IMG/VR virus record: IMGVR_UViG_3300003323_000950
Coordinates: 11,659-75,658 of that record
Strand: one strand, 5' to 3'
Origin: a virus
DNA: 64,000 nt
The position numbers and the translations under genes were made by a program. Under the pieces are notes generated by a model. The model was not told the origin of the DNA and searched no databases. It was given only the letters and a program-made list of their open reading frames with translations. Positions 15,465 to 62,066 of this stretch are shown one piece after another (the stretch's first letter is position 1; every line of letters starts with the position of its first letter).

Positions 15465-15535
15465 ACCCCAAACTTCTTAGTAATACTTAGATGTGCGAAG
15501 AAAAGTCTTACCGGTACAAATATAACATTACAACT

Positions 15536-30348: not shown

Positions 30349-30416
30349 AAAAAAACCCCGAGCTAAAAGCCCGGGGCCATCAATCAAACTTTCATGCTGA
30401 CAACGTTGGATTGGCC
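30349..30416 (-). terminator. Terminator after the tube gene, preceded by a hairpin carrying an anti-leader sequence
   Basis: CCCCGGGCT-TTT-AGCTCGGGG plus T7; upstream ATGAAAGTTTGATTGAT. Confidence 0.75.
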
Positions 30417-39809: not shown

Positions 39810-40304
39810 ATGAAAACAGCTATCGATATTACTGGTCAAAAGTTTGGAAGGCTTACCGTTTTGAAAAGAAACGGTGAAAGCAAGAACGGCATGTCTTTAT
39901 GGTTATGCGTTTGCGAATGTGGTAGGAAAATAACTACTCGATCGAATGGATTGAGAAGCGGAAGGGCGAAAAGTTGTGGCTGTCATAGGAAAGATCGAAT
40001 GAAGACATTAAATCTTGATCATGGTTTAAGAAACCATTATATCTATAACATTTGGAGAGGCATTAAAAAGCGTTGCTATAATAAGAAACATAAAAGCTAT
40101 AATGATTATGGAGGTCGTGGAATCACGATGGCTCCTGAATGGCTAGATGACATAGTGGCTTTTTATAATCATGTTGGTGAAAGGCCATCGTCAACTCATC
40201 AAATTGATAGGGAAAATAATAATGGAAATTATGTTCCAGGAAACGTTCGATGGGTAACACCTAAAGTCAATTCAAATAATAGAAGGAAATCTAAACGGCC
40301 TTGA
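39810..40304 (+). CDS. HNH homing endonuclease-like protein
   Basis: DITGQKFGRLTV, WLCVCECG, SCGC, YGGRGI, IDRENNNGNY.PGNVRWVT...N..NRR. Confidence 0.9.
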   Translation: MKTAIDITGQKFGRLTVLKRNGESKNGMSLWLCVCECGRKITTRSNGLRSGRAKSCGCHRKDRMKTLNLDHGLRNHYIYNIWRGIKKRCYNKKHKSYNDYGGRGITMAPEWLDDIVAFYNHVGERPSSTHQIDRENNNGNYVPGNVRWVTPKVNSNNRRKSKRP

Positions 40305-42849
40305 AGTAGGCAATACATCTTCCTCTGCAATGCGGGTGATACGACGGCAGTGCAATACCTTTCGCCTGCAGTGATTTCGGATCCATGGTCACAAACTGAT
40401 CAAGCTTAATCGTGGTGGCGAATGGCGTATATTCCGGTGTTTTCGCTATGCCTTCCCGAAACAATGTCTCGTATTGCTGCACACTGTTTTTAACGCTGAA
40501 TATTTTGCCATTCATATGCTTGCAGTATCCGCACGTGAGTCTATCCATCACCTCAACAACCTGGTACTCGGCAATATCTGCCTGATTCAGGTATAGAAGG
40601 TTTCCGATGTTTCGCGCTTTGTTGGATGTAGTCTCTATGATTCGGCGGATCTTCCACGCTTCAAGTAGTACCTCCCTGGCAAATTCGAGTATAAATTCCT
40701 GTATCAAGCTACTGCCCTTGCCAATCGGAACATCGCCCTGTTCAAATTTCTGCTTCACCCAGTTTACAATTCGCTCTTGGGTATCCGGATCAGTTATAAA
40801 TTTGCCCAAATAGGTATGGTCTACTTCTTCCAGGAAGGCAATCGCGCGGGCATCCAACAGATTGAATGCAGCATCCGGGACGGTTACGAACGATACAGGT
40901 GATCGGGAGTATTCACTCGATTCAGAAAATATCGATTTGTCCTGGCGGTAAAAGCTGTAGATATCTTCTATGTTATTTGTGACAATGTCATGAACCGGCG
41001 TCACGAAATTGTTTTCCCAGCCCTCCAGAAGGCCGTAATACATAGCTGCTTGAACTTCACCAACTAATGCGGTTTCGCCTAAAGCTTTGAATTCTCTGGT
41101 TATTGACTTCTTTGACTTGTTAACGAAGGTTTCGAACTGGGTATTAACAGCGCCCAGATATGCCTTCAGAAAATCCACCAGATGGGCATCGTGATAATTG
41201 CCTATTTCGTCGAAAGAAGCGGCCCCGGAGCAATCTTCCGGGACCGCATAATCAAAAGGGGGCGCTTCGATGTTAAGCTTTTTACGGATACGGTCCAGCT
41301 TTTTTTCAGCGGTGGTCTGCGCTTTATTATCTTCCGATCCTCCTACTGCCTTCGACGGTAATATATTGGTTATTGGTGCATCAAGCTCAGGATCGTCGAC
41401 TCCTGCGTAATTGGCTGCTGCTTTCTGGCTCATAAAGCCTGAGAAATAATACCTGGCGGCATTTTCAATGCGCTCTTTCTTGGCCTGTTCGTCTTTGAGT
41501 TCATCGGTTATCGATGCCCGCTTGTATCGGATATTGCATACCGCCGGTCTAAATCCAGCCAGGCGGAGCTCGAGCATAAACACCCGTGATTTGAATTCAG
41601 CGAGTGTGCGCTGGAAATTGGCAACCTGCTGCGTCATCTTGGTAAGCACTACGCGGCCGAACGTCTCCGTAGTCGCGTAGTTCTCGCCGTGCATATTCGG
41701 GTCCTGCTTGAGACCTGAATAGATCAGGGATTTGACCATCTTCATTAATTGCTCACCGGACGCGCCGTTCAGTTCAGATCCCTGTAGGGTGAACTCGTGA
41801 TTATCTTTGTAACCCACCGTGAACCCACGAGAAAAACCATTTTCAACATCCTGTCTTACGCTGTTCAGATAGTTCCTGAGATAATTTTCATACTCTTCAG
41901 GTGATTTTTGTTGCTGTGGAGGTGCTTTCAACAATACCGACAGAAAGCCCATCATCCCGAGCCGGCGCATCATGTTCTTGAAGTTACCGATCATATCCTT
42001 TTCCGTCAGCAGGTCTTCAAGCGCTGAAGCGAAAGGTGGAACGGCAACCGGCGATATGCCCAGCCGGCGTATACCAAGGTAGGTGTACGTCGCCGGATTG
42101 AGCTGTATATAGCCAGGATATAGCCCGGTTCCGTTATTTGAGTTTACGCCTACTATTTGCTGCAGGGGAACGTGAACAGACTTAACCTTGTCGTAGCCAA
42201 ACCGGATGTAATATGGATCAACTCGAACAATGCTCTGGATGCCTTTAAGATTCGGCATGATCACAGCCTCTGCGCTTAGTGCGCCGGAGTACGCCATTTG
42301 GGTAAGAAGATCATTGTCGAGGGAGTCTTCGCCAGAGGCAAATTCGTACCAGCTCTTTACTCGAGTCTGGAGATACTTGCGCATCTCAACGCTTTGTTTC
42401 TCGCCGGTCTCGCCGAAGTCTATGTCATAATCTGTATTGCCGAGGGCAACGATATTTTCAACGGCCATAGATACGTGGCGATCCTGGAAAGCGTACTTCT
42501 GTAGGGTTTTGAGTATGGTGTAGTCGAACTCGTTATCCACCGGGGCGTTCATGTTGCCGAAGCCATAGTTCCCTTCGTACAGAGAGACCCGTCCGCTGGC
42601 GATTGGAGCCATGACGTTATTCGTCGTGTCATCCACCTTGTTCGACATCGCTGCGTACTTCTGTTCCTCTTCCTGGAAAACCTTGCGGATTATGTCACCA
42701 TATACCCTTTCGAATTCCGCTTCATTGATCTGCTGCGGGCTTGGTTCAGAAACAACTGCGGCTGATACGGCCGCTGGCTGGGATTCTTTTTCCGGCGCAG
42801 CCTTCACAGACTTACCCCAGCCGAAAGAAAAATTGACATTGAAACCCAT
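40291..42849 (-). CDS. Portal protein fused to a Mu gpF/SPP1 gp7-like minor head domain
   Basis: Portal-like region (VPPFASAL..L, RRLGMMG); C-terminal RRIIET, DRLTCGYCKHMNGKIF, LPSYHPHCRG. Confidence 0.85.
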   Translation of the reverse strand: MGFNVNFSFGWGKSVKAAPEKESQPAAVSAAVVSEPSPQQINEAEFERVYGDIIRKVFQEEEQKYAAMSNKVDDTTNNVMAPIASGRVSLYEGNYGFGNMNAPVDNEFDYTILKTLQKYAFQDRHVSMAVENIVALGNTDYDIDFGETGEKQSVEMRKYLQTRVKSWYEFASGEDSLDNDLLTQMAYSGALSAEAVIMPNLKGIQSIVRVDPYYIRFGYDKVKSVHVPLQQIVGVNSNNGTGLYPGYIQLNPATYTYLGIRRLGISPVAVPPFASALEDLLTEKDMIGNFKNMMRRLGMMGFLSVLLKAPPQQQKSPEEYENYLRNYLNSVRQDVENGFSRGFTVGYKDNHEFTLQGSELNGASGEQLMKMVKSLIYSGLKQDPNMHGENYATTETFGRVVLTKMTQQVANFQRTLAEFKSRVFMLELRLAGFRPAVCNIRYKRASITDELKDEQAKKERIENAARYYFSGFMSQKAAANYAGVDDPELDAPITNILPSKAVGGSEDNKAQTTAEKKLDRIRKKLNIEAPPFDYAVPEDCSGAASFDEIGNYHDAHLVDFLKAYLGAVNTQFETFVNKSKKSITREFKALGETALVGEVQAAMYYGLLEGWENNFVTPVHDIVTNNIEDIYSFYRQDKSIFSESSEYSRSPVSFVTVPDAAFNLLDARAIAFLEEVDHTYLGKFITDPDTQERIVNWVKQKFEQGDVPIGKGSSLIQEFILEFAREVLLEAWKIRRIIETTSNKARNIGNLLYLNQADIAEYQVVEVMDRLTCGYCKHMNGKIFSVKNSVQQYETLFREGIAKTPEYTPFATTIKLDQFVTMDPKSLQAKGIALPSYHPHCRGRCIAYFKAV

Positions 42850-42886
42850 TTCGAATACTTTTTAGGGAGTAAATGTAACCAAAAAC

Positions 42887-43159
42887 TTAGTGGCTTGCTG
42901 ACCACTGGAACCCCAGGTAGATCGCGAGTAATATGAATGAAATTGATAGCGCCCAGAATAAAGGCACGTGTTTATCTGTAAAGGTGATCTTTTTTACAAC
43001 GGTGGCGATTACCAAAGCGAGGAAGAGAGCGCCGGCGATCGGCCACGCGGCGCTATCTGATACGTCGTTTATGTACGGGCTGGCGATGGTGCCTGAAACG
43101 ATTATGCCGGCCACAATCCGGAATATAAAGTTGTTCAATGCTGCTATTAAAGTGCTCAT
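42887..43159 (-). CDS. Small three-TM membrane protein
   Basis: Three hydrophobic helices. Confidence 0.65.
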   Translation of the reverse strand: MSTLIAALNNFIFRIVAGIIVSGTIASPYINDVSDSAAWPIAGALFLALVIATVVKKITFTDKHVPLFWALSISFILLAIYLGFQWSASH

Positions 43160-43174
43160 GGTTTTTTGAGCAAG

Positions 43175-44467
43175 TTACGGAAACATGGACAACTGCATGT
43201 CTCTGTTGCGGATAGCAAATTCAATCCGGGCGCGGGATATATTGATGTTGTGTTCGTCGAGCTCTATCCCGGTATATAGCATTTTCTCGAACATGCATGC
43301 TTTGCCGGTTGAGCCGCTGCCTGAGAATGGGTCTATGACGTGGCCTCCTTTCGGCGTAACCAGATTGATCAGGTACCGCATTAGCGCGGTTGGCTTAACG
43401 GTCGGGTGATTGTTTGGGCTTGATTTGTCAGTACCTTCAGACTGAAAGGAACCCGGGTTTTTGGTGCCGCTGCTCCAGAGCAGTGGCATAGATGCTAAAG
43501 CCTCACATCCTTCGTTTCTATCGAGGCGTGATGTCTTTGCGCAGTAAAAGAAGCGGGCTGCAGAACCTTCGTCGCCATAGCTTACATTTTCAGAACCGAA
43601 AGCTCTCACATGCTTGCCGTAGGTATTATTACCAGAATATCCGGTGGCTGTTTCGTTGGTAAAATTGGAATCGCCTGACTTAGTATATGGGAACATCTCC
43701 ATTATGCATTCTGAACCGTCGTGAATGAGGTTTGCCGGCCAGCGGCCATTCTCACCACCAGATACAGCTTCAGCGTGCTTCTCACCGTTGTTGTTGCCTG
43801 GTGTATACGATGCGTTGTTAAGTTTTGGCTGGCTGCTTACAGTCCACGGTCCTAAGCCTTTTATGGATGACTCAGCGATGTTCAGCGCTCCCACACCGAA
43901 ATGATCCATATTACTCTTAACGGTCCCATTCAAAGGCTTTCGGGCGACAAGGATAGGTTCATGAGCAGGCTTAAGCGCAGTGCCATAACCCTCGTGTTTA
44001 CCTTCCAGATTGTGAGACTTGGGGAAGCCAGAACCGAATACCCAAAATATTTGATCGCGTACTTCGAAACCTGCTTCCTCGACGCCGCATACCATCCGGT
44101 GATATGTGCGCGGGCTCGCGAATACGATCATGTGCGCACCGGGTTTCAATATGCGGTACATCTCCGAAGCCCATGTAAATGTGAAGTCCTGGAACTGGCG
44201 CATCGCTACTATATCGTTTTTGTAGGTGCCGGCTGAAAGAGACTTTCCAAAACCATTACTAACTCTGCCTTCGCGGACGGCTTCACTTTTGGCTTTATTG
44301 TCTCGAATAGCATGTTGCTTTTCGATATCGAACTTATCCCAGGCCTTGCCCATGAAGCGGATCCCGTACGGCGGATCAGTAACGCAAGAATCAAAATGAT
44401 CTGCGGGCAGCTGCTTCATTACCTCCTCGCAGTATCCGGTGTAAAGTGTGTAGGGTTTAGCGGTCAT
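43175..44467 (-). CDS. DNA N6-adenine/N4-cytosine methyltransferase (beta class), orphan
   Basis: VTDPPY before HPTVKP and IDPFSGSGSTG. Confidence 0.93.
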   Translation of the reverse strand: MTAKPYTLYTGYCEEVMKQLPADHFDSCVTDPPYGIRFMGKAWDKFDIEKQHAIRDNKAKSEAVREGRVSNGFGKSLSAGTYKNDIVAMRQFQDFTFTWASEMYRILKPGAHMIVFASPRTYHRMVCGVEEAGFEVRDQIFWVFGSGFPKSHNLEGKHEGYGTALKPAHEPILVARKPLNGTVKSNMDHFGVGALNIAESSIKGLGPWTVSSQPKLNNASYTPGNNNGEKHAEAVSGGENGRWPANLIHDGSECIMEMFPYTKSGDSNFTNETATGYSGNNTYGKHVRAFGSENVSYGDEGSAARFFYCAKTSRLDRNEGCEALASMPLLWSSGTKNPGSFQSEGTDKSSPNNHPTVKPTALMRYLINLVTPKGGHVIDPFSGSGSTGKACMFEKMLYTGIELDEHNINISRARIEFAIRNRDMQLSMFP

Positions 44468-44507
44468 TTTATTTTACTCTGGCTCCTGGATCTATTGAAG
44501 TGTCATA

Positions 44508-44792
44508 TCAATATGCCCCATGATCAAGCATATCACTTGACTTTACAGATTTTTCAAACTCGTACTCTTTTAGAATTTTAACCAGATAGATCTTTCCGGT
44601 GGTCTCTTTGTGGTACTTATTCAAAAGGTCATCATACTCTGCCGGCAAAGCCGATCGAACTTTATCTGGCTGCGTGAGCAGCGCATACGCGACTAAAGTA
44701 TCGCTTTCGCTTAGTTCCTGGTGCACTGGGCCTCTGTCGTCGAAGATCGCCATAACGCGCTCCGGAATGTTAATAACGGGAAGTTTATTCAT
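44508..44792 (-). CDS. Hypothetical protein
   Basis: 94-aa ORF in operon orientation. Confidence 0.6.
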   Translation of the reverse strand: MNKLPVINIPERVMAIFDDRGPVHQELSESDTLVAYALLTQPDKVRSALPAEYDDLLNKYHKETTGKIYLVKILKEYEFEKSVKSSDMLDHGAY

Positions 44793-44806
44793 CGTCGTAA
44801 GGGGTT

Positions 44807-44857
44807 AAAAGAAACCGGCCACCATCTGAACCTAAGTTTCTTCCTATGGCAGCCGGA
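44807..44857 (-). ncRNA. Terminator-like hairpin with a 20-nt loop
   Basis: CCGGCUGCCAU-loop-AUGGUGGCCGG-UUUCUUUU; G-U pairs support the minus strand. Confidence 0.55.
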
Positions 44858-44912
44858 AATTCATAAAAGTGTAAGTGGTCGTCATGGGGCCATTGCTTGT
44901 TAAGAACGTCGG

Positions 44913-45006
44913 TGCGAATCATGACCTTCGCATTGTGCCCAGGTGTTGGCTTTCGCTGAACCCGGGCGGATGTAGTTTAAAGTTATCAATCAATCAAACA
45001 GCATCC
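44913..45006 (-). ncRNA. Multi-hairpin small RNA B with anti-leader loop
   Basis: GGAUG..GUUUGA-UUGAUUGAUAACU-UUAAAC..CAUCC, then GCCCGGGU...ACCUGGGC and UGCGAA...UUCGCA hairpins. Confidence 0.65.
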
Positions 45007-45016
45007 ATATCTTAAA

Positions 45017-45115
45017 GGCGCACGGCAGGATTGTCTGTTTTTACTGGACTTATACAATTTGCCAGTGCCTTACCTGCAAATGTGTCCGGCGCATTTGATC
45101 GCCGCCACGTGCGCC
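45017..45115 (-). ncRNA. Degenerate tRNA-like element
   Basis: Acceptor-like GGCGCACG/CGUGCGCC, UGGCGG after the stem, T-stem GCAGG/CCUGC with a hairpin inserted in the T-loop; no canonical anticodon arm. Confidence 0.55.
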
Positions 45116-45123
45116 ATTAATTT

Positions 45124-45423
45124 TTATTCAGAAACCAGCATTTCAGCCGGGTAATAAGTCAATTCGAAAATATCAGGTTTGCATGGGTAGAACTCACCTT
45201 TAACGCCTTTGATAATATAGTCTCCTGGTAGCGCTTTGTGGTCGCCTTCAAGTGTTGGGATCGTCACGCTGAAGATAGGAGCGCCTTTACCGGCTTCGTA
45301 AGCTGTATCAGACTCCAATTCAGTTTTCAGTTCTGTGCCGACAAATCCATTTATCTCGTCGAGATTGTGACCATTGTATTGCACTGCCTCAATGGTGATA
45401 GGTTTTTTAGTATATTTTTTCAT
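45124..45423 (-). CDS. Conserved phage protein (PGDYG-like family)
   Basis: KKPITIEAVQY, IPTLEG.H.A.PGDYIIKGVKGEFYPCKPDIFELTY. Confidence 0.8.
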   Translation of the reverse strand: MKKYTKKPITIEAVQYNGHNLDEINGFVGTELKTELESDTAYEAGKGAPIFSVTIPTLEGDHKALPGDYIIKGVKGEFYPCKPDIFELTYYPAEMLVSE

Positions 45424-45437
45424 AAAGTTGATTTTCA

Positions 45438-45924
45438 AAGTAAGCCGCCAGTGTTACCCGGCGGCTTTGACGGTTTTTATGGATCTTACCGACAAACCGA
45501 TTTGTTTCAAAGAAACGACCTGCGTACACTCTCACTTTCAATTTCACCCTCTTTCTATCGAAAGGCTAATTTCCTGGGCAATACTACTACAGATCGTCTT
45601 GTCCGTTTCACAGACTTTGTCCGCATGCGCTTTGGACCAGCGTTGCATGTTTACATGCTCGTCCCGGTTAGCCGGGCGACTCCCAATTTAAAGATTAGGC
45701 TCTCTTGTCTTCGGCCAGCGGAGGGCTTCAACCTCCTGTCAACATTACACGTCTGTTTATCGACCGCCGTTTATTACAGACCTTTAACACGGCCGAATGC
45801 AAACGCCAGCATGTAACCGATGACAAACTTTCAACACGTTGCCGGCCTAGTGCCTGCGGGGCTGGGTTCATCACGCCCAGGCCCCTATGTGCCTTTTCAT
45901 TTTACCAAAACCCAAAGGACACAT
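45438..45924 (-). ncRNA. Large structured ncRNA of about 480 nt with 5' anti-leader hairpins and an embedded tRNA-like domain
   Basis: No minus-strand ORF in the track; own promoter; nested long-range helices with G-U pairs on the minus strand; terminal GC hairpin 45442-45467. Confidence 0.75.
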
Positions 45925-45925
45925 T

Positions 45926-45955
45926 CAAATTTATAGCCTTCTGCTAGTTATCAAA
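45926..45955 (-). promoter_or_regulatory. Bacteroidota sigma-A promoter for the ncRNA
   Basis: TTTG (45955-52), 18-nt spacer, TAAATTTG (45933-26). Confidence 0.75.
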
Positions 45956-46011
45956 AGAAGCCGATGGCATTAATTTTTATACTATATCAACTGTAAGGGT
46001 TACAAAGGGAC

Positions 46012-46044
46012 AAAGCTCGGCGGGCATATACGTCGGGCTTTTTT
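46012..46044 (+). terminator. Plus-strand terminator with no obvious upstream gene
   Basis: GCTCGGCG/CGTCGGGC stem with two G-U pairs on the plus strand, then T6. Confidence 0.65.
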
Positions 46045-46051
46045 ATTGCCC

Positions 46052-46294
46052 CTACAGTATTTGTATGCGTGACGGCTCTATGCGCCTGTGTTCATAGGCA
46101 CCGCTTTCGTTCTTTTCGAACGGCTCGATGATGGCATAGGTCCTGGAGAAAATCAACCCTACAGGCTGATCTGGCGGCTCAAGATCGCTCACGTATCCGA
46201 TCAGATAGGCTTTTTTAAGCTTGCCATCCTTTATATCCAGGAACAACACGCGCACGTGGGTAATTCTGCGGAGGAATCGAAACAGTCTATTCAT
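46052..46294 (-). CDS. Hypothetical protein
   Basis: Likely start MNRLFRFL, overlapping the upstream stop. Confidence 0.55.
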   Translation of the reverse strand: MNRLFRFLRRITHVRVLFLDIKDGKLKKAYLIGYVSDLEPPDQPVGLIFSRTYAIIEPFEKNESGAYEHRRIEPSRIQIL

Positions 46295-46751
46295 GTTCAA
46301 TAAATGAAGTTCTCTTGTTGTTGACCAATTCCATATTGAGATCCGCGAACGCTTCGAGCTCGTTCTCACCCACGCCGAACGTACCAATGTGCGGACTGTC
46401 AGGCATCCACTCGCCAGCCATGCATGCGACAAAGTCACCTTTGTAAGCGTACACCATGACACCGCGCTTAATGCAATACTCCTGTATTATTTTACCGAAA
46501 TGCTTATCCATTTCCTCAAACAGGGTATTTAATTTCTCCCACTCTGGCGTGCCCCATACATCTCTGTAGAAGCCAGGTATCGCCATCACATAAAGGAGAA
46601 AATCCATCAACGAAAGGTGATTTGTGATGTGGAACAGAGTCTCAACTCCCTTCCACGTTTTGTACTGGTTTACGCCGATAGCCTGCACTAAATTTTCAGG
46701 CACGCACACCGGGGCATTGTCCTTGCCCAGGAAAATATAAAATGGTTTCAT
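46287..46751 (-). CDS. Hypothetical protein
   Basis: 154-aa ORF; C-terminal FGVGENELEAFADL is HicB-N-like at best. Confidence 0.65.
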   Translation of the reverse strand: MKPFYIFLGKDNAPVCVPENLVQAIGVNQYKTWKGVETLFHITNHLSLMDFLLYVMAIPGFYRDVWGTPEWEKLNTLFEEMDKHFGKIIQEYCIKRGVMVYAYKGDFVACMAGEWMPDSPHIGTFGVGENELEAFADLNMELVNNKRTSFIEHE

Positions 46752-46759
46752 AGTTCGGG

Positions 46760-47026
46760 TTACTTTATGGTGATGTCTTCGTATTTGAAAGATACCTTGG
46801 GTGAGTTCGTGCCCTGGTTAAAACCTATCTCGCGGATTACGGCATCACGCACGGATTCTTTCACAGAATCGGCTGACATCTCGTAGGTAGACCAGGCCAG
46901 CGCCTCGCAGTTATCAACAATCGTTTCACGATCACCATTCCTGGTATCATAGGATATTACCATGGTGAATCCGTTTCCTTTTTCGTCGTCGAAATTTTCG
47001 ATTATCTGCTTTCTTAAGGTTGCCAT
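46760..47026 (-). CDS. Hypothetical protein, first gene after an operator-promoter
   Basis: 88-aa ORF with the conserved ATCAATCA leader. Confidence 0.7.
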   Translation of the reverse strand: MATLRKQIIENFDDEKGNGFTMVISYDTRNGDRETIVDNCEALAWSTYEMSADSVKESVRDAVIREIGFNQGTNSPKVSFKYEDITIK

Positions 47027-47054
47027 TTGCTTTTTGTTTGACTGATTGATAGAT

Positions 47055-47086
47055 CAAATGTAACACGAAGTTACATGCAAAGCAAA
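47055..47086 (-). promoter_or_regulatory. Promoter TACATTTG overlapped by a perfect operator palindrome
   Basis: ATGTAAC-ACGAA-GTTACAT (47058-76); TTTG upstream. Confidence 0.85.
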
Positions 47087-47112
47087 TGTTTTATCTTTTT
47101 TATATGAAAATT

Positions 47113-48969
47113 CTACCAGTTGGCCAGTAACCAGTTCAGTCCACCCACGCCGGAAACGCCGTTCAGCATGCCGTCTACATCGAAATCAGAATAGCGCGAA
47201 ATCCATGCAGATTCAAAATCTGCCGCCATACGGGTAGCCATGCTACCGTTATTATTAAGGGCTCCTATGGAGATGAATTGACTCGGGAGGCCGGTAGATG
47301 CTACATTTGCACTGTGTAACACAGAGTTGTTTTTCAATAATGCCTTTGTGCCGACGTTTCTCGCTATGCCATACCAATTGCCAGATACAAAGGCAGCCTC
47401 TCCATTATAAACGGTAGCCGTATTGTCATTAACACGATATAACAACCCTGTCGTGCCTGAACTCTGCGCCAGGAAGAAAGCGTTCACGGTATCCGTACAA
47501 CCGAACATATACGCCGCAGTTCCTGAGGCAGTGGTACGAGTCTTCAGTTTTACCATCATCATCACATTATCTTGTGTGACCCTGGAAGTATTTATGTTGC
47601 CTCTGAAATTAAGCGCGTAGCTGGAAGTGCTGCCGTTTGTTGATATATGGCTGTTGGCGGTGAATGTTCCTGAGCTGCTGCTCAAATATGTCAGCATGGA
47701 CCAATCCAAGAAAACGTTGTTACCATTGCTTGTTTTAAATACACCCAGATATTCAAGCTTAAACCAGTTCCCGAGTGAAATCTGTGTTGACACAAAAGTT
47801 TCGATCAGGTTTTTGCGGGCAGTGGTGATATCATCGAAGTGGTTAGCGATGATCATACGGGCCCATTTACTGTAGCTCGCATTCGCCATCCATCGGGCGC
47901 GCATGTTCCCAATATCGTTGTTACCTGTCTGATTTCTGTGCAGACCGTCAGCACCGTATCCGCCAGATCCGATCAGTGCCGCATTTAAACCAACGATGTG
48001 CAGATAATCTCTGGCTACCGTTTCATCTATCAGAGCCTTCCTAAACGCGTAAATTCTGTCATTAAGAACGCTTGTTTCATATCTGCCCTCTTGTGACCAC
48101 AGCACTGGAGTGTTCGGGTAGTCCGTGTGCAATCGGTTCATGTATTCCTGAGTCTTGGCTACAATAGTAGGCATATCTAAAACCGGCGAGACCGTAGTTC
48201 CATCTCTTCTGATGTCGTTTATGCCTAAACTTTCATGGATAGCTATCGGTTCATCTACCGAAGCTGCAGCCAACGCCGCTGTCGTTCTCGTTTTGGCGTC
48301 ACTGTACAGATTACCACCGCTAATATCCCATGTATTCGTCGTGGGCACAGACTCAGCCCTGAATACAATCGTTGATCCTGCTGATGCGGCAGGCACAATA
48401 ATCGCCTTAAGTGTTGTGAGCTCGTTGAATTTAATACCAAACTGCGGATGTGGCGTGCCCTGACTGGCCGGGCAATTCCAGGTATCAGCGTTTGTTATCT
48501 GAACAATCGCCGAGTCGTTCCATTGGTATACTGTTCCCGCTGTCGGAGTAGGGCCAGGGCCTGTGGAGTTGTTGGAGCCTCTTTCCCGACTATCACCGTG
48601 GATAACCACCACAGCTTGGCCAGTAGCGGATATTTGCGAAGAATACACCGGGCCCACCCCGGCCGAGGTAGCGTTCGCGCTCCCTCCTGAATTGGTGGCT
48701 GTGACATAAAATGTCAGCGTTTTTAACACATCAGCGTCCTGCGGGGTGTAGGTGATAGATGTTGCCCCTGATATTGGTGATCCGTCGCGCATCCATTGAT
48801 AGGTCAGGAGCGGTCCATTTGTCCACGTGCCGCCGTTCCCGGTTAAAACCTGCCCCTTTTTTGGAGTGCCTGAAATACTGGGCGCTACTGTATTTGCGGG
48901 CGGTTGAACTGATGGGCCAGTCTGTGAACCCGTACCGCTGATAACAGAGCTGATTATGTTTAACATCAT
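47113..48969 (-). CDS. Ig-like repeat + SGNH (carbohydrate acetylesterase-like) + ConA/LamG-like protein
   Basis: ANTVAPSISGTP..GQVL...TYQW.RDG..ISGAT; HGDS, LGIND, DGLH. Confidence 0.8.
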   Translation of the reverse strand: MMLNIISSVISGTGSQTGPSVQPPANTVAPSISGTPKKGQVLTGNGGTWTNGPLLTYQWMRDGSPISGATSITYTPQDADVLKTLTFYVTATNSGGSANATSAGVGPVYSSQISATGQAVVVIHGDSRERGSNNSTGPGPTPTAGTVYQWNDSAIVQITNADTWNCPASQGTPHPQFGIKFNELTTLKAIIVPAASAGSTIVFRAESVPTTNTWDISGGNLYSDAKTRTTAALAAASVDEPIAIHESLGINDIRRDGTTVSPVLDMPTIVAKTQEYMNRLHTDYPNTPVLWSQEGRYETSVLNDRIYAFRKALIDETVARDYLHIVGLNAALIGSGGYGADGLHRNQTGNNDIGNMRARWMANASYSKWARMIIANHFDDITTARKNLIETFVSTQISLGNWFKLEYLGVFKTSNGNNVFLDWSMLTYLSSSSGTFTANSHISTNGSTSSYALNFRGNINTSRVTQDNVMMMVKLKTRTTASGTAAYMFGCTDTVNAFFLAQSSGTTGLLYRVNDNTATVYNGEAAFVSGNWYGIARNVGTKALLKNNSVLHSANVASTGLPSQFISIGALNNNGSMATRMAADFESAWISRYSDFDVDGMLNGVSGVGGLNWLLANW

Positions 48970-48981
48970 AAATTTTAATTA

Positions 48982-50400
48982 TTAAAACGAAGATTGAAGC
49001 AATGTTTTACATGCGGCGTGGCCGGATGCATTGAGGTGTATTCCGTCACCGATGTTGTAAGTAGAATTCAACGTGAAGTTTCCAGCATCTTTTGTGAGTG
49101 TGTAGAAGTCGATATCACCGGTTATTCCGGACACGTCTACATTGGAGGCTACGGGGCGGCCGGTTACGACGGTTATGTCGGCAGCCTGCAGTGTTGATTT
49201 TATGGCGGCTATATTTGAATTAACCGTCGCCGCAGATGCGCCAGCGTCGATATCATTGCGGCCGATATTCATGTAAACCCGGCGTGGCTTCAAATACAGA
49301 ATTTCATTAATGTTGGCTGTCACCTCATCGGTTCGGTCGGAGATGCCCGCAGATATCTCATAAGTGTATGAATCTGCAACGAATGCCGCCTCTGTGTAAC
49401 GATTGGCAGATACACCTGGATATATACCGTACATATTTGAATCTCCTTTCCCTAAAGCCTCAGCAAAGCGCTGAACGGTACTCGACACTTCCCAGCTGTC
49501 AATGACAGTAGTTCCACCAAAATTGTAAATCGCAAAGTTTCCGGTGTTATGCGCCTGGGCAACGTTCGCAGTAGTGATGTTTATAGAGAATGTCGTTGTG
49601 TAAAGCTGAGTGTTTGACGTGTTCAGTATCCTGAAAGTAAACTGGTGCACGTTCCTGGTAATCTCTAAAATATAGGTTGTGCTGGCGACTGGCGTGAAGG
49701 AAGTGCCCGCTACCATCTGGCCGGTTATCGTGTCTTTGGTGTAGAGATATACAGCCCCGGAGGCGTTGTCCCATGCCCATCGCACAATGCTGCTGAACGG
49801 ATCGAAAGAATTGATACTTCTGATTCCGATACCAATACCGTATACCGTGCTGCCCAGTGTAGCAGGCGTCGTGCATTGAACGCGCTGAGTCCATTTCTCC
49901 AGGCAGGTTACTTTATGCGGGCTCGTTGACTTGGTATAGGTCAGCGCGCTTGAAAATAGTGTCGGGTTGCCCGTCATGGTAACTGATCCGGAGCCGATGG
50001 TAATGCCAGTGCCTACTACGGTGTAATCAGCCAAAGTGCCGTTAAAGTCTTCGCTGAATATGGTACCGAGTTGAACAGGTACTGGCCACTGCACGGCTGC
50101 GGTGGCGGTAGAATACGCCGTAGTCGATCCAAAGGCATTTGTTGCGGTTACGCCTACGCGTATTACGCTTCCATAGTCAGAAAACAGTATTAGGTAGGTA
50201 GAAGCCGTAGCCCCGGAGATATTAACGCCGTTTTTCTGCCACTGGTATGTGTATGATGTAGGGGAATTTGCCCAGGTGCCATTCGATGCGGAAAGCGTCT
50301 GATCGGCGCGCGCGGTTCCTGAAATAGCAGGTAGAACAGTATTTGCCGGTGCGATTCCTGTAGAATTGTTTACTATGGAGGCGACGGCATTTATAATCAT
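48982..50400 (-). CDS. Ig-like repeat + beta-sandwich + SGNH/GDSL esterase protein
   Basis: Start ATG 50400 (MIINAVAS); GDS, GRND, DGIHLN..GH. Confidence 0.8.
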   Translation of the reverse strand: MIINAVASIVNNSTGIAPANTVLPAISGTARADQTLSASNGTWANSPTSYTYQWQKNGVNISGATASTYLILFSDYGSVIRVGVTATNAFGSTTAYSTATAAVQWPVPVQLGTIFSEDFNGTLADYTVVGTGITIGSGSVTMTGNPTLFSSALTYTKSTSPHKVTCLEKWTQRVQCTTPATLGSTVYGIGIGIRSINSFDPFSSIVRWAWDNASGAVYLYTKDTITGQMVAGTSFTPVASTTYILEITRNVHQFTFRILNTSNTQLYTTTFSINITTANVAQAHNTGNFAIYNFGGTTVIDSWEVSSTVQRFAEALGKGDSNMYGIYPGVSANRYTEAAFVADSYTYEISAGISDRTDEVTANINEILYLKPRRVYMNIGRNDIDAGASAATVNSNIAAIKSTLQAADITVVTGRPVASNVDVSGITGDIDFYTLTKDAGNFTLNSTYNIGDGIHLNASGHAACKTLLQSSF

Positions 50401-50431
50401 GGCATTACTGTTTGTGCCATAAAAATACGAA

Positions 50432-50463
50432 GGGCTATGCATTTCCGCTTTAATGCATAGCCC
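50432..50463. other. Strong intergenic hairpin (terminator or leader structure)
   Basis: GGGCTATGCATT...AATGCATAGCCC, 12-bp perfect stem. Confidence 0.6.
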
Positions 50464-50516
50464 GTTTAAACGTGACGTCATTTTTAATACCGTCACTTCT
50501 CTATATGTGCTTTGTG

Positions 50517-50753
50517 CTAATCGAACGATATTTTGGAGGTACCGGAAATGGCACTGACCTTTTTCAGATGCTCTTCGGACTCGGCTTCCAACTTGGCATT
50601 TGCCTCGTCAGTTTCCTGCTTCAGCTTTTTCATAGCCTTTTCCTGCGCTTGCCTGGCTTCCTCGGCGGCTATGTCGGCCTTTTCCTTTAGATCCTGAAGC
50701 TGCTTCTTTTTCTCTTCGGATAGCTCTTCAAGTGGTTTTTCCTCGTTTTCCAT
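50517..50753 (-). CDS. Small coiled-coil protein
   Basis: E/K-rich 78 aa. Confidence 0.65.
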   Translation of the reverse strand: MENEEKPLEELSEEKKKQLQDLKEKADIAAEEARQAQEKAMKKLKQETDEANAKLEAESEEHLKKVSAISGTSKISFD

Positions 50754-50769
50754 AGGTCAAAAATAGCTT

Positions 50770-51048
50770 TTATTGATAGCATTGCAAAGAGTCGCGGGTG
50801 AGGTTGGCGACTTGTATCGAGCTGTGTGAACCTCTCACGTATATCCACACTCCGAATTTCATGCCATCGTGAAATTCTTCTATGTAATGGATTTCACCGT
50901 CGGCGATTGGAGCGACGTATCCCGATAGTTTCGATTCGATTATGTTTTGTTTCATATCGGATCGTGAATGCGTCAAAAGAACCACGCCATAAGATGTGAG
51001 GCCAATTGCTAATGTAATTATCAATACGAGCCAAAAATCAAATTTCAT
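50770..51048 (-). CDS. Membrane-anchored hypothetical protein
   Basis: Likely start MKFDFWLVL; N-terminal TM. Confidence 0.6.
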   Translation of the reverse strand: MKFDFWLVLIITLAIGLTSYGVVLLTHSRSDMKQNIIESKLSGYVAPIADGEIHYIEEFHDGMKFGVWIYVRGSHSSIQVANLTRDSLQCYQ

Positions 51049-51061
51049 AAATGTATATTTT

Positions 51062-51400
51062 TTAGTTGATGTTCGGGATATCGGCAGGCTTGCCGGAATG
51101 GAGTCCTCTGTTTCTCGCAGTCTCATACTCCATGAAGTTGTCGTAAACCGTAACGGTGTCGATTCTTACAGCTATCTCCACTTTAGTTTTAAGCCACGCC
51201 GATGTCTGATAGGATATGTAAAGGTTATTGCCCATGAACACGAAATACTCAGATCGAACGCATAGGTCTTTAACATTTCGCTTCTTACGAAGCGTTTTTT
51301 TGTCGTGATCAGCTACCTTATGATTAGCGCGGATGATGGACCACAGTTTGCCCATCACTTCATCTTTTGCCCAGTCTTCCTTTTTGAATGTTGCTGCCAT
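51062..51400 (-). CDS. Hypothetical protein
   Basis: 112-aa ORF in operon. Confidence 0.6.
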   Translation of the reverse strand: MAATFKKEDWAKDEVMGKLWSIIRANHKVADHDKKTLRKKRNVKDLCVRSEYFVFMGNNLYISYQTSAWLKTKVEIAVRIDTVTVYDNFMEYETARNRGLHSGKPADIPNIN

Positions 51401-51573
51401 TATATTTTCCTTAAAAGCCTTGTAATAACTACTACCTTTTTTCCGTCGAAATCGACCAGCATGCTACCGTTGCGGCCGCGTATGCATTTGCCGTCAGGTC
51501 TTAGCACGGCACTGCATATCGCATTTTTATAGTGTGACGCTGTAAATCGATCACCAATATATCGATACATCAT
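51400..51573 (-). CDS. Small hypothetical protein (57 aa)
   Basis: Manual translation: MMYRYIGDRFTASHYKNAICSAVLRPDGKCIRGRNGSMLVDFDGKKVVVITRLLRKI; coupled start/stop overlaps. Confidence 0.65.
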   Translation of the reverse strand: MMYRYIGDRFTASHYKNAICSAVLRPDGKCIRGRNGSMLVDFDGKKVVVITRLLRKI

Positions 51574-51719
51574 GCTTTATCTGATTTTCTGTATTTCAAA
51601 GACGGTCCACGCTGCCATGCGACAATATCACTACTGAAGAAGAAATCGTCGTACGTTTTCAGCGGCCGCTTCGGCTTAGGCTGGTGAATGAAGGTGCGCT
51701 TCTGCTGCTGTGAGGTCAT
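51570..51719 (-). CDS. Small hypothetical protein (49 aa)
   Basis: Manual translation: MTSQQQKRTF...; ATGA overlaps at both ends. Confidence 0.5.
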   Translation of the reverse strand: MTSQQQKRTFIHQPKPKRPLKTYDDFFFSSDIVAWQRGPSLKYRKSDKA

Positions 51720-51952
51720 TCTGCCGAAGTTTGAATGTCTCTCTTACCTTCGACCGGCACGTATCCAGATCCACCGCAATTGGGGCAGTGTTCTTCGTTG
51801 CCATGAATGTCGAATATTGATCCAAACCCGTCGCAATCAGGGCATTCTTTGGATAAAGCGGGCACGGCTCTTTTGCCGTGCGCCGCCTTTGGATAGGCTC
51901 CTGCGAAAAATGCTTTTTTATTGATCATCAGCTTGCTGAGTTTAAAAACCAT
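51716..51952 (-). CDS. DnaJ-type zinc-finger protein
   Basis: CPDCDGFG and CPNCGGSG. Confidence 0.7.
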   Translation of the reverse strand: MVFKLSKLMINKKAFFAGAYPKAAHGKRAVPALSKECPDCDGFGSIFDIHGNEEHCPNCGGSGYVPVEGKRDIQTSAE

Positions 51953-52128
51953 TGCTTGCCGAGTTTGAATATGAGACTCCCTTTCTTGTTGCCGTGGTCG
52001 GCAATCAGAATACCAAGGGTTGAACGCTCGATCTTCTTTTCAGATTTCTTGCGCGGCCGCTCCGGGTTTTGCTCGTTGATCGCAGCTACGCGGGCTTCCT
52101 GGTATAGCTGGTGATAGGTCTTTTCCAT
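51928..52128 (-). CDS. Hypothetical protein
   Basis: 66-aa ORF with A/C-rich leader. Confidence 0.55.
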   Translation of the reverse strand: MEKTYHQLYQEARVAAINEQNPERPRKKSEKKIERSTLGILIADHGNKKGSLIFKLGKQWFLNSAS

Positions 52129-52151
52129 TACGAAAGAAGGGTTGGTTTTTT

Positions 52152-52178
52152 AAAACCCAGCCCTACACGAGGGCCGGG
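52152..52178 (-). terminator. Terminator
   Basis: CCCGGCCCT-CGTGT-AGGGCTGGG-TTTT. Confidence 0.65.
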
Positions 52179-52222
52179 AGTTTGTTCAAAATAAATTACT
52201 ACTACAATTGCGCGGCATAGGG

Positions 52223-52582
52223 TCACGCTTCCGTCCCATACCCGGCTTTGTTTAGAGCTTTGATGGCTTGCCCTTCGGCGAAGTCGCAACCGCCGAAATT
52301 TATGTCCACATTTAATTCCAATAGCATTACATCGGCCGGTATCTGCCGTATCAGGTCGCGCATAGCGTTGAGCGTCGAGGCTAACGCTTCTGCCAATTCA
52401 GGCGCGGCAGCGATAAGCGCGGCGTTGGCCTTAGTTTCATTCCGATTGCGCGGGTCTTTACCTCCCATTGAATTCTTGATGAGGGAACTACCGCATTCAG
52501 CCAATATCATTCCGCTAGAATCAGCTACATTAACTTCCGACCCTGAAACGTGCCACGGGCCAGGTGTGTGTTTTGTATCCAT
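52223..52582 (-). CDS. Conserved phage early protein (HTPGPW...ANA.LIAAAPEL family)
   Basis: MDTKHTPGPW and ANAALIAAAPELAEAL motifs. Confidence 0.8.
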   Translation of the reverse strand: MDTKHTPGPWHVSGSEVNVADSSGMILAECGSSLIKNSMGGKDPRNRNETKANAALIAAAPELAEALASTLNAMRDLIRQIPADVMLLELNVDINFGGCDFAEGQAIKALNKAGYGTEA

Positions 52583-52608
52583 ATGTTTTTGATTGATTGA
52601 TGATGAAT

Positions 52609-52630
52609 CAAATGTAACACGAGATTACAT
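52609..52630 (-). promoter_or_regulatory. Promoter TACATTTG overlapped by operator
   Basis: CAAATGTAAC-ACGAG-ATTACAT. Confidence 0.8.
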
Positions 52631-52647
52631 TAAAAGCAAGTGGTTAC

Positions 52648-53412
52648 TCAAAAAAGTGATCCCTGGGTCGGTTTATTTTTGTCAGACTTACGCGGCGGAT
52701 GCCAGCCAGCGGCAATCTTCTTTTCGAGTTCCTTTTTCCAGCCTTTGGGCGGCGGCCATGGAATGCCCCATTGAGCCAATGATTCGGCTGTCCATCCGCC
52801 GAGGTCTGTTCGCTCGGTTTCAATAGCGTCTTCTTCTATTACTGAATTTATGCACTCCTGCCGGCAGGCTGGGCAGCATGAGCATGTCTGACAGCCATTG
52901 TAATTCAATCCATCTTCAAACGTAGCCTGGCGCGCGCAGACGCGGCCAACGTCATCCGGAAGAACATCCCCGCTACAGTAAATGTTTTCGCATTTGATAA
53001 CCTCGGGCAAAGTCTTCTCTAAAGCCAAATCCACAGACTCCTGCGCTTTGAATGGATTATACACCATTTTAAGCCCGTTAAAGCGATCGTACACGTAGCC
53101 GGCCTGTTCTATCTCAGCCGGCGTAAAGCGAGCGTATCCGTCGCTCCTGACGCCTTTACCGGCCAACTTCGGGAAGAGCTCGTCTATGAGTTCGTAAGCT
53201 TGTTTATGGTATTTGGTGCCATCTCTATCGGACGGGTGCGCGAGGTCTCCGATAAGATCATTCTTGTACATGAGCCGGCCCAGGAAGTCGCCAATCTCAT
53301 TCATACGCGTGTACGCGCGCGCGGTGTAGAACACAGGCGGGCCGTAGTTCATCTGTAGCACCACGACATAGTCGCCTTTCTCGCGGCAGAATTGGTTGGG
53401 TAGGTTATTCAT
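52648..53412 (-). CDS. Hypothetical protein with Cys cluster and GGWT...WGIPWPPPKGW domain
   Basis: Likely start MNNLPNQ; CQTCSCCPAC...C. Confidence 0.65.
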   Translation of the reverse strand: MNNLPNQFCREKGDYVVVLQMNYGPPVFYTARAYTRMNEIGDFLGRLMYKNDLIGDLAHPSDRDGTKYHKQAYELIDELFPKLAGKGVRSDGYARFTPAEIEQAGYVYDRFNGLKMVYNPFKAQESVDLALEKTLPEVIKCENIYCSGDVLPDDVGRVCARQATFEDGLNYNGCQTCSCCPACRQECINSVIEEDAIETERTDLGGWTAESLAQWGIPWPPPKGWKKELEKKIAAGWHPPRKSDKNKPTQGSLF

Positions 53413-53780
53413 AAGTATGGCTTCAGATCTGTCAATCCGTTTCGGTATTCTTCGTTCAGCTTGTCCACATCGTCGGTCTTTATCTGGAATAGCTGTCCGG
53501 TCTTTGTATTGATAACCCACATCATTGCTGAGAAAATGGGTTCAGGCGCTACGATTGTTTGAGGCTGTTTCGAACGGCGGATAACCCGCAGTGGTGGAGC
53601 AGTTTGCGCTGGCTTCGGCTCCTGTCGTGCGCTGGTGCATTGCTCTTTGTGAACCTGAATCCACTTTTCAATTCTTGGGTCTCCACCGCCCACGAAATCC
53701 TCGCGACGTTCCCATCCAACGCTGCACTCATAGTTTATGATCCGCTCACCGCAGGCAGAACAGTGAAGATTGGCATACAC
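53409..53780 (-). CDS. Hypothetical protein, possible zinc finger
   Basis: CSAC...H...C. Confidence 0.6.
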   Translation of the reverse strand: MYANLHCSACGERIINYECSVGWERREDFVGGGDPRIEKWIQVHKEQCTSARQEPKPAQTAPPLRVIRRSKQPQTIVAPEPIFSAMMWVINTKTGQLFQIKTDDVDKLNEEYRNGLTDLKPYL

Positions 53781-53849
53781 CCTGCGTTCATCCCAGATAT
53801 CTGGAACGTACTGCGGTGTATGCCTTTACTTTCGGTTCTTGCGGGCCGA

Positions 53850-54323
53850 TCATTTTTTCAGATCAGAGGACCCCGTTGTATAACTCAGCATGTCTTCTTC
53901 GTTGGCGAACTCGTATACATTGAGTATGCAAACATTTTCAACGAATAGCTGATAGTCATCAGGATATGACTGACTATCCCTATATCCTTTTACGACGGAT
54001 TCTATTATAGTCCTATGAGATGGAAATTTGTCAGACTTGAGACCGACAGACATAGTCAGATTCTTTGACTTGAATTTCGGGTTGTTATCACCATCAAGCC
54101 TGTCGGTCTCATACTGAACCTCGGCAGAAACGGTTATAAGGAAATACCGGGCAAAATCCGATGCAGTTGATTCGTCAGTCAGTTTTTTAAGTGCCTCATG
54201 TGCAACTAATTGAACTTCTCTATATACATCATCATAATAACCCTGTGCTTTTGTAATTCTAACAAGAGCGTCACGGCATACGTCTAATGCCTCTTTTACT
54301 TGTTTGATTGTGTATTTAGTCAT
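53850..54323 (-). CDS. Hypothetical protein
   Basis: Likely start MTKYTIKQ. Confidence 0.6.
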   Translation of the reverse strand: MTKYTIKQVKEALDVCRDALVRITKAQGYYDDVYREVQLVAHEALKKLTDESTASDFARYFLITVSAEVQYETDRLDGDNNPKFKSKNLTMSVGLKSDKFPSHRTIIESVVKGYRDSQSYPDDYQLFVENVCILNVYEFANEEDMLSYTTGSSDLKK

Positions 54324-54345
54324 AATTACCAATTTACCTTTTTGC

Positions 54346-54531
54346 CTAATATCCGCTGAATATATAAATGATGGTCTGTTTACAGTTTTCACTGCAAACA
54401 AGGTACTTATATGGCTTTACATAGTATGGCCCTTTGCGCATAGATCCACGGCCATTTGTAAACGTCATCTCTACTATAACCAACATAGGAAATAAGCAGA
54501 ACTCACCACATTGATCGCAGATCATTACCAA
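54346..54531 (-). CDS. Small zinc-ribbon-like protein
   Basis: CDQC...CSENC. Confidence 0.5.
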   Translation of the reverse strand: MVMICDQCGEFCLFPMLVIVEMTFTNGRGSMRKGPYYVKPYKYLVCSENCKQTIIYIFSGY

Positions 54532-56129: not shown

Positions 56130-56166
56130 TGTGGATATGTGGATAGAATTGTGGATAGATTTTATA

Positions 56167-56230
56167 AATGGGCGTTGAGTGGGCGTAGGAAGAAACTAAT
56201 TTTTAAAGCCTACGCCCTATCATGCCCATT
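56167..56230. other. Long intergenic hairpin upstream of the coiled-coil gene
   Basis: AATGGGC...GGGCGTAGG-19 nt-CCTACGCCC...GCCCATT. Confidence 0.65.
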
Positions 56231-56294
56231 GCGTTTGTGATTGTGTAGGTATTCCGCTTGTCTGGGTGGCGAGCCCCGCCGCGTCTCGGAGCGG

Positions 56295-56555
56295 TTACCG
56301 GCCGACTACCTCCTTCCTAAATTGTTGGTATGCTACGTACAGCATCATCCCGGCCGCGCATACCAATAGTATGCACAACAGGCAGGCGCTGATATAGGGT
56401 ATGGTAAGAATTATTCTGGCTACTGCACTGGTGCCTAATGTATGTAGGCACTGGTAAATAGCCCAACAATTGAATGCGATGACCCCGCTCATCAAGGCCA
56501 TCACAAACAGCAGGAAGAAGAACCGCCGGGGACAGCGGATTTTGAAATATCTCAT
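56295..56555 (-). CDS. Two-TM membrane protein
   Basis: Likely start MRYFKIRC; two hydrophobic helices. Confidence 0.6.
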   Translation of the reverse strand: MRYFKIRCPRRFFFLLFVMALMSGVIAFNCWAIYQCLHTLGTSAVARIILTIPYISACLLCILLVCAAGMMLYVAYQQFRKEVVGR

Positions 56556-56779
56556 GAAACCTTGTTTTTGATTTCCTGCTGAGCCCACAGATCGCTATGG
56601 ATAAATGTGTCGTATTCTTCCGACGTCAGGCGCTCTTCAAGAATAGTAAGAGCGGCAACAAAAGCCATCGTTGCACCTTCTTCTTTAGACGATACCAATG
56701 CGACAGCGTGTTTTTTTAGTTCTTCTGTTGTCTTAGTGTCTAAGGCTGCGAAGATTGGTGCTGTAGTCTCGTTTCTCAT
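56552..56779 (-). CDS. Hypothetical protein, first gene after an operator-promoter
   Basis: 75-aa ORF with the conserved leader. Confidence 0.7.
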   Translation of the reverse strand: MRNETTAPIFAALDTKTTEELKKHAVALVSSKEEGATMAFVAALTILEERLTSEEYDTFIHSDLWAQQEIKNKVS

Positions 56780-56801
56780 TTTGTTTGATTTGATTGATAT
56801 T

Positions 56802-56823
56802 CAAATGTAACACGAAGTTACAA
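56802..56823 (-). promoter_or_regulatory. Promoter TACATTTG overlapped by operator
   Basis: CAAATGTAAC-ACGAA-GTTACAA. Confidence 0.85.
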
Positions 56824-56833
56824 TATAACAAAC

Positions 56834-56867
56834 AAAAAAAGCCGATTCTTTTTATAGAACCGGCTTT
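56834..56867 (-). terminator. Terminator
   Basis: AAAGCCGGTTCT...AGAATCGGC plus T7. Confidence 0.8.
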
Positions 56868-57043
56868 ACCAACAGAAAAGTAGCCTTGTAGATCTTAAAC
56901 CGATGCTAATATATGAATATTTTCACCAGGATATAAAGCGTTGCGATTGCGGTGCCGTAGAAAATGAAAAATCCGAGTATTTTGATCCGGCGGCGAGTAC
57001 TCGTGTTCTCCAGGGAACGCCGCCGGTATACGACACGCATCTA

Positions 57044-57652: not shown

Positions 57653-57670
57653 AGAAAATGAAAGTTTGAT

Positions 57671-61814: not shown

Positions 61815-61835
61815 AAAGGTTAAAAGTTTGATTGA

Positions 61836-62066
61836 TTATTTGTTTTTGTTTCGCGCACGGCGCTGTTTGCGTCGGCGATTTTTAGTGTCTTCATTGTACT
61901 GTATCTGGCCACCTTTAAGCATAATAGATCTCATGGATATTATAACCGGCTCAAGAGGCATAAACCACTCCGGATCGCCAATATCGCGCTTAAAGTTTTG
62001 GATTGACTCAGCACTTTCCCGCATTACGCGGTCAAATTCTTTATTCAGTTCTGCAGTACTGGGCAT
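61836..62066 (-). CDS. Hypothetical protein with basic tail
   Basis: 76-aa ORF in operon. Confidence 0.55.
   Translation of the reverse strand: MPSTAELNKEFDRVMRESAESIQNFKRDIGDPEWFMPLEPVIISMRSIMLKGGQIQYNEDTKNRRRKQRRARNKNK

Follow-up and report, generated by a model that had tools for sequence, protein, structure and literature searches.

Site B is a short element in the genome of an uncultured phage, where it occupies the spacer between a gene for a 99-aa protein (45124-45423, minus strand, stop codon at 45124) and two open reading frames (ORFs) of 45 and 94 aa (44785-44922 and 44508-44792). The genome is a 75,658-bp IMG/VR record with direct terminal repeats, and its bases 11659-75658, a stretch of 64,000 nt, form the window analysed here; coordinates are those of the window, negative ones lying outside it. 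Read on the minus strand, the spacer runs ...AUGGAUGCUGUUUGAUUGAUUGAUAACUUUAAACUACAUCC-GCCCGGGUUCAGCGAAAGCCAACACCUGGGC-ACAAUGCGAAGGUCAUG. It holds two adjacent predicted hairpins, of which the first displays part of a stretch, termed the seed, that is complementary to the leaders of several phage genes (Table 1).

The minus strand carries nearly all genes of the phage, the one clear exception being an HNH endonuclease gene, which is flanked by the portal gene and the next head gene and shares 14 nt with the 3′ end of the former. By its gene content the phage appears to be tailed, with a contractile tail; the labels capsid, sheath and tube used below were assigned from position, from a preliminary description of this DNA and from tblastn conservation in relatives. 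Between terminase and portal lie about 15 kb of accessory genes (42850-58100), comprising Ig-domain fibre-like proteins, small ORFs behind strong promoters, a noncoding cluster and a DNA methyltransferase.

Start codons of the phage are not preceded by a Shine-Dalgarno (SD) sequence, and the leaders are rich in A (38%) and poor in G (15%). About 12 promoters genome-wide have the form TTTG(C)... TGTAAC-N5-GTTACATTTG, in which the final eight bases form a TAnnTTTG -7 box and TTTG stands at about -33. A TAnnTTTG -7 box with TTTG at -33 is the consensus of the Bacteroidota sigma factor sigma-ABfr, and Bacteroidota mRNAs are without SD sites and depend on A-rich leaders (PMC7366714). A Crocinitomicaceae contig holds a distant homologue of the portal. 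Given the sigma-ABfr-type promoters, the SD-less A-rich leaders and this portal homologue, the host is very probably a member of Bacteroidota. What the preliminary description called an operator is the phage's version of the Bacteroidota -33/-7 promoter, which is also found ahead of replication and tail genes: the same type stands before a dNMP phosphatase gene and before the gene 29465-30307 (which directly follows the tube gene and has no family match), and a copy of lower score stands before a replication initiator.

Table 1 Coordinates of site B, its predicted target leaders, sibling sites and landmark genes in the window
Feature	Position	Strand	Description
Terminase	58102-59799		PHROG match
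Portal	40291-42849		PHROG match
HNH endonuclease	39810-40304	+	PHROG 374, E 5e-64; only well-supported plus-strand gene
DNA methyltransferase	43175-44467		PHROG match
Nearest promoter upstream of site B (45933)	45926..45954	-	TTTG-18 nt-TAAATTTG; canonical Bacteroidota type
Upstream multibranch domain (predicted)	45012..45120	-	109 nt; 8-bp closing helix GGCGCACG/CGUGCGCC
Hairpin 1 (predicted)	44968..45006	-	Stems GGAUG/CAUCC and GUUUGA/UUAAAC; 13-nt loop UUGAUUGAUAACU
Anti-leader seed	44984..45000	-	UGUUUGAUUGAUUGAUA; 10 of 17 bases (3′) in the loop, 5′ GUUUGA in the stem
Hairpin 2 (predicted)	44937..44967	-	GC-rich 8-bp stem with internal loop, directly after hairpin 1
Leader of 88-aa gene 46760-47026	47035..47051	-	Best predicted target; directly behind promoter 47075
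Leader of 119-aa gene 52223-52582	52588..52601	-	14/14
Leader of 75-aa gene 56552-56779	56782..56799	-	17 pairs, one bulge, -18.9 kcal/mol
Leader of 175-aa gene 61287-61814	61826..61837	-	12/12
Leaders outside the window matching site B	gene starts at -9213, -8282, -8741		13/13 for -9213
Site 1	45900..45915	-	5′ end of large noncoding RNA; matches leaders 38205 (16/16), 37706 and 32547 (12/12 each)
Site 3	30379..30395	-	Predicted single-stranded; 3′ UTR of gene 30431-30961

Predicted fold and transcription of the spacer

The preliminary description had placed an antisense sequence at 45000-44984 of the minus strand, presented by a hairpin loop, with a GC-rich hairpin after it. Sequence, coordinates and loop display were all reproduced, and the second hairpin is present at 44937-44967 in the predicted fold. 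Hairpin 1 has a predicted energy of -10.8 kcal/mol (z -4.2), its plus-strand counterpart being less stable (-7.9 kcal/mol, z -2.8), and the two hairpins combined reach -28 kcal/mol (z -4.0). In the context of the 211-nt spacer, the seed's ten loop bases are predicted to be unpaired with P 0.8-0.99 and the GUUUGA segment to be paired in the stem, with about half of the seed buried there. The core of the seed is a (TGAT)3 tetranucleotide tract. Between the stop codon of the 99-aa gene and hairpin 1 a multibranch domain is predicted, which could be a processing or stability element; ARAGORN and Rfam detect nothing tRNA-like in it, and it matches no Rfam family.

No TAnnTTTG/TTTG box occurs on the minus strand between 45123 and 45006. 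Downstream, hairpin 2 runs into ACAAUGCGAAGG with no U tract, and a scan for rho-independent terminators on the minus strand found none here. With neither a promoter nor a U-tract terminator of its own, site B is therefore an intercistronic segment, and a discrete sRNA is not indicated; the free-standing sRNA gene of the preliminary description is not borne out. The element is best described as a structured intercistronic part of a longer minus-strand transcript that carries the 99-aa gene and probably continues into the 45-aa and 94-aa ORFs and the methyltransferase gene. It lies between cistrons, on the coding strand and as a structured module (z -4.0), as do intra-operonic and UTR-derived sRNAs.

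The probable source of transcripts entering site B is promoter 45933, by way of a large RNA and the 99-aa gene. This promoter heads an ORF-free structured region of ~480 nt. On the minus strand, 45424-46051 comprises ~620 nt without an ORF, with promoter 45933 and a closing hairpin at ~45440-45465, and is probably a large structured RNA; it has no match in Rfam.

Complementarity of the seed to SD-less leaders

The seed is complementary to at least six leaders, with duplex energies from -24.1 to -16.9 kcal/mol. All four matches listed in the preliminary description were recovered with the pairing given there (16/17 with a G-U pair, 14/14, 17 with a bulge, and 12/12). The best of them, with the leader at 47051-47035, has 16 Watson-Crick pairs and one G-U pair and is extended by UGC/GCA across a 4-nt bulge, for a total of -24.1 kcal/mol. 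That the three best targets stand behind the strongest palindrome-bearing promoters also holds, promoters 47075, 52629 and 56822 being among the top four by position weight matrix (PWM) rank. The target genes, only putatively the early genes of the preliminary description, are first cistrons behind the highest-scoring promoters and encode small proteins without known function.

The seed-complementary stretches begin just downstream of the -7 box TACATTTG (TTTG at -33) and end 5-8 nt before the AUG. Because they follow the -7 boxes so closely, they fall within the first ~20 nt of leaders of 25-30 nt and, judged from sequence, the targets of site B are real transcribed leaders. Only one G-U pair is usable for telling symmetry at the RNA level from symmetry at the DNA level, so a comparison of G-U pairs with A-C mismatches has no power here. 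The leaders complementary to the anti-leader sites are free of start and stop codons.

Several comparisons establish that the pattern of complementarity is non-random. With eight of the 107 leaders, the seed forms a predicted duplex of -15 kcal/mol or lower; shuffled seeds do so with 1.6 leaders on average and with 7 at most, none of 200 reaching eight, and the best leader binding of the reversed seed is -12.8 kcal/mol. After the cost of opening hairpin 1 has been paid, the net energy is still -13.1 to -7.3 kcal/mol for six targets, the median over the 107 genes being -0.8; the largest gain (-13.1) is that of the 47026 leader. Pairing that starts at the loop and then opens the stem is thus thermodynamically favourable by computation, and hairpin 2 remains folded in all predicted dimers of the RNA with its targets. 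A predicted accessible seed complementary beyond chance to translation initiation regions is what would be expected of a trans-acting regulator.

We also counted complementarity genome-wide, taking 12-mers from the -30 to -1 regions of genes and searching for their reverse complements in noncoding DNA of the same strand. This gave 28 position pairs, against 2 for a reversed and 0 for a complemented control, and the matches collapse to three multi-target sites, 45900-45915 (site 1), 44985-44999 (site B) and 30379-30395 (site 3), plus one 14-mer at 15754-15767. When the search was confined to noncoding DNA other than leaders, the leaders themselves being left out of the target space, four anti-leader sites of at least 14 nt were found against 0.07 expected, a number that none of 1000 dinucleotide shuffles reached; with stricter gene calls on both strands, the count was three against 0.057 expected. 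Reverse-complement 12-mers are ~16-fold denser in noncoding than in coding DNA. Applied to four complete genomes of related phages (69-72 kb), the same pipeline returned no site that reached 14 nt, and 12-nt sites were as frequent as expected by chance; the pipeline therefore does not manufacture such sites.

Sites 1, B and 3 all lie in noncoding DNA, on the coding strand and beside a GC-rich hairpin, and are aimed at different classes of leader. The leaders matched by site 1 are those of the decoration, capsid and sheath genes, 8-13 kb away from it. Site 3 is followed directly on its 3′ side by a strong terminator hairpin and U7, an arrangement that, as modelled, is the architecture of a 3′-UTR-derived sRNA; it has a 12/12 partner 71 nt downstream. 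Sites B and 3 have an 11-nt core, GUUUGAUUGAU, in common and may therefore be copies and not independent events. The 14-mer at 15754-15767 (minus strand) is fully complementary to the leader of the gene that starts at 4632; the 14-mer is located within a 560-nt stretch upstream of promoter 15396, where the only ORF, 15491-15976 on the plus strand, is unsupported and has no PHROG match.

A possible leader-masking RNA and its alternatives

Taken from this one genome, the evidence makes it plausible, if short of an even chance, that site B is a trans-acting RNA that masks the leaders of several phage genes. Transcripts would reach it from promoter 45933 or, by read-through, from promoter 47075, probably. 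An RNA containing the hairpins, processed or not, would have to accumulate, with hairpin 2 as a stabilising 3′ module, and would pair in vivo with the A/C/U-rich, SD-less leaders of 25-30 nt behind promoters 47075, 52629, 56822 and -8236 and with those of the genes whose starts are at 61814, -9213 and -8741. The interaction would begin at the 10 nt displayed in the loop, proceed to a duplex of 14-20 bp once the weak AU/GU stem opens, and cover most of the leader from the 5′ end of the mRNA to within a few bases of the AUG. As the leaders are SD-less and the promoters are of Bacteroidota type, a duplex on a leader of 25-30 nt should block ribosome loading, leaving the 30S subunit without the unpaired stretch on which it has to land in Bacteroidota mRNAs. 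Repression would then consist in turning down translation of the first cistrons after the downstream region has been transcribed. The simplest logic would be delayed negative feedback on the first cistrons of the promoter family, in trans on all its members or in cis on the same long transcript. The hairpin lies downstream of promoter 47075, whose leader is its best partner.

By extension, sites 1, B and 3 could be three modules, each aimed at one class of leader: virion genes, promoter-proximal small genes and 'AAUCAAACUUU' genes. An RNA-based translation programme of this kind, in which the three modules time or balance protein synthesis by masking SD-less leaders in a host phylum where an unpaired leader takes the place of the SD interaction, is a more doubtful proposition than leader masking by site B.

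Alternatively, site B could be a functionless inverted copy of a leader, left by inverted duplication, by recombination of a promoter-leader module or by tetranucleotide slippage, and located in a hairpin by chance. We regard this as unlikely, if worth serious attention. Slippage, or the inverted duplication of a short piece of a leader, could have produced the low-complexity (TGAT)3 core. Period-4 tracts are not rare in the genome: 11 have a length of at least 11 nt, and in three of these the unit is TGAT. Such an origin is harder to reconcile with three to four sites against ~0.06 expected and none in the four related genomes, or with sites that are without exception noncoding, on the coding strand, beside GC hairpins and directed at different leader classes; nor does it sit well with the enrichment of reverse-complement 12-mers in noncoding DNA. 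The match to the 47026 leader does extend past the consensus of the leader family, as expected if one leader had been copied. Moreover, at the 8-mer level the strand bias of the repeat motif is only mild (11 on the coding strand, 7 on the other), and this weakness too is in keeping with a copy.

Action in cis is improbable in our assessment. Here site B would pair back to the 5′ leader, 2 kb upstream, of its own transcript initiated at promoter 47075, and would restrict how much of the first cistron is translated or change the stability of the mRNA. By far the strongest partner of the seed (-24.1; net -13.1) is indeed the nearest upstream leader on the same strand, but two terminator-like hairpins, at 46012-46041 and ~45440-45465, intervene between 47026 and 45000, and site B also has several good partners that belong to other transcription units. 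The sibling sites point both ways, since the partner of site 3 is only 71 nt from it and those of site 1 are at a distance of kilobases. That site B is without its own promoter or terminator would suit a cis element.

A role of the DNA itself or of the plus strand, as a site bound by a protein in either orientation or as the start of an antisense transcript that mimics a leader, is less probable still. The site resembles a leader when read on the plus strand, that strand also folds (z -2.8), and a weak sigma-70-like match lies at 45031-45058 (+), yet the PWM score there is -2.5 compared with 24-46 for real promoters, and no properly spaced TAnnTTTG box is present. Nor does any plus-strand ORF follow the leader-like motif. 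With no plus-strand promoter of the phage's class and no ORF, the plus-strand reading is therefore weak, and three leader classes each with an inverted copy would call for three proteins. The score of -2.5 likewise led us to reject an inverted copy of the whole promoter module.

Finally, a three-frame translational stop that halts read-through or frameshifted ribosomes can be set aside as highly improbable: TGA does occur in each frame within 44985-44998 and is followed by TAA, and the (TGAT)n core of site 3 (30379-30395, minus strand) likewise has TGA in all three frames, but this is an automatic property of any (TGAT)n tract, the upstream gene already ends 125 nt earlier, and neither the display in a hairpin nor site 1 is accounted for.

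Known regulatory RNAs and phage relatives

Post-transcriptional control has hardly been mapped in Bacteroidota or their phages, and how translation is regulated on SD-less mRNAs is an open question. If site B masks leaders in trans, a hairpin of 40 nt and leaders of 25 nt would make a compact, testable system for a phage-borne leader-masking RNA, and antisense control, which P1 c4 exerts on a single operon, would extend to whole gene classes and to SD-less systems. If it is a neutral inverted copy, it is a curiosity of one metagenomic genome.

Among known systems, the c4 RNA found in phages P1 and P7 is functionally the closest: it is processed from the transcript of its own operon, and its loops pair with a ribosome-binding region and block translation (PMC5320573). 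In both cases, for site B by prediction, a phage-encoded hairpin loop is set against the ribosome-landing region of a phage mRNA. The c4 RNA, a three-stem fold with a′ and b′ loops, has one target operon and a masked site of SD type, and is released by RNase P at a tRNA-like feature, whereas site B has one loop, matches SD-less leaders of one family that are spread over several operons, and shows no recognisable processing signal. Rfam gave no match at gathering score in the window and no C4 or other match at E values up to 10 in 44700-45300, and ARAGORN found no tRNA. In the Cuckoo/CcsR RNAs of Alphaproteobacteria, adjacent hairpins present a fixed loop motif to the ribosome-binding regions of many mRNAs (PMC4615179). 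These RNAs comprise 2-4 hairpins, each with a CCUCCUCCC anti-SD loop; in site B the motif is found in one hairpin only and is U/G/A-rich, and the targets are SD-less. The site B loops are UUGAUUGAUAACU and that of a GC hairpin with an internal loop, with no C/U-rich anti-SD motif. Site B belongs to neither the c4 nor the Cuckoo family.

Among the sRNAs of Bacteroides, GibS pairs through extended seeds with translation initiation regions, and some sRNAs, such as BTnc069, derive from inside operons (PMC7366714). Sigma-ABfr promoters, SD-less mRNAs and extended single-stranded seeds are features shared with the phage. The Bacteroides sRNAs are chromosomal, experimentally shown and mostly equipped with their own transcription start site and terminator, whereas site B is phage-borne, predicted and without both.

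Megablast and blastn searches of GenBank phages found nothing past the coding part of the 99-aa gene. The 99-aa protein itself belongs to a very large, highly conserved phage family (PHROG 419, function unknown; no Pfam match), with more than 8000 matches at 60-82% identity; the 80 IMG/VR loci that carry its gene share no other gene and no noncoding similarity. With the portal as query, tblastn matches reached no more than 31% identity. Scans of viral and metagenome contigs with the single protein gave no hits, nor did a scan of genome contigs, and alignment-based scans gave 38 loci at 31-39% identity. Across GenBank phages, IMG/VR, JGI metagenome contigs and GTDB genomes, the only relatives are those with 31-39% identical portals; homologues of 45-52% identity exist as protein records.

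In the relatives with 31-39% identical portals, the terminase gene is often 2-9 kb upstream of the portal gene, and adjacent to it in several, and the 15-kb accessory region is absent. Searches with nhmmer found no homologue of the spacer or of the large RNA in the relatives and no paralogue in the phage's own genome. A promoter-pattern scan of viral contigs returned single chance matches only, and the 22-kb relative loci contain only AT-rich near-palindromes between one leader and another. As anti-leader sites were not found in the four complete related genomes, they are therefore not a family-wide strategy as far as seen.

Two sets of repeats were observed elsewhere in the window. Three copies of TATCCACA (56130-56160) stand immediately ahead of a 534-aa gene (54525-56129), and three copies of TGTGGATT (11756-11800) stand immediately ahead of a replication-initiator-like gene (10901-11755). 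The TGTGGATT repeats are the TATCCACA core in inverted orientation, and both sets are candidate iterons or origin sites.
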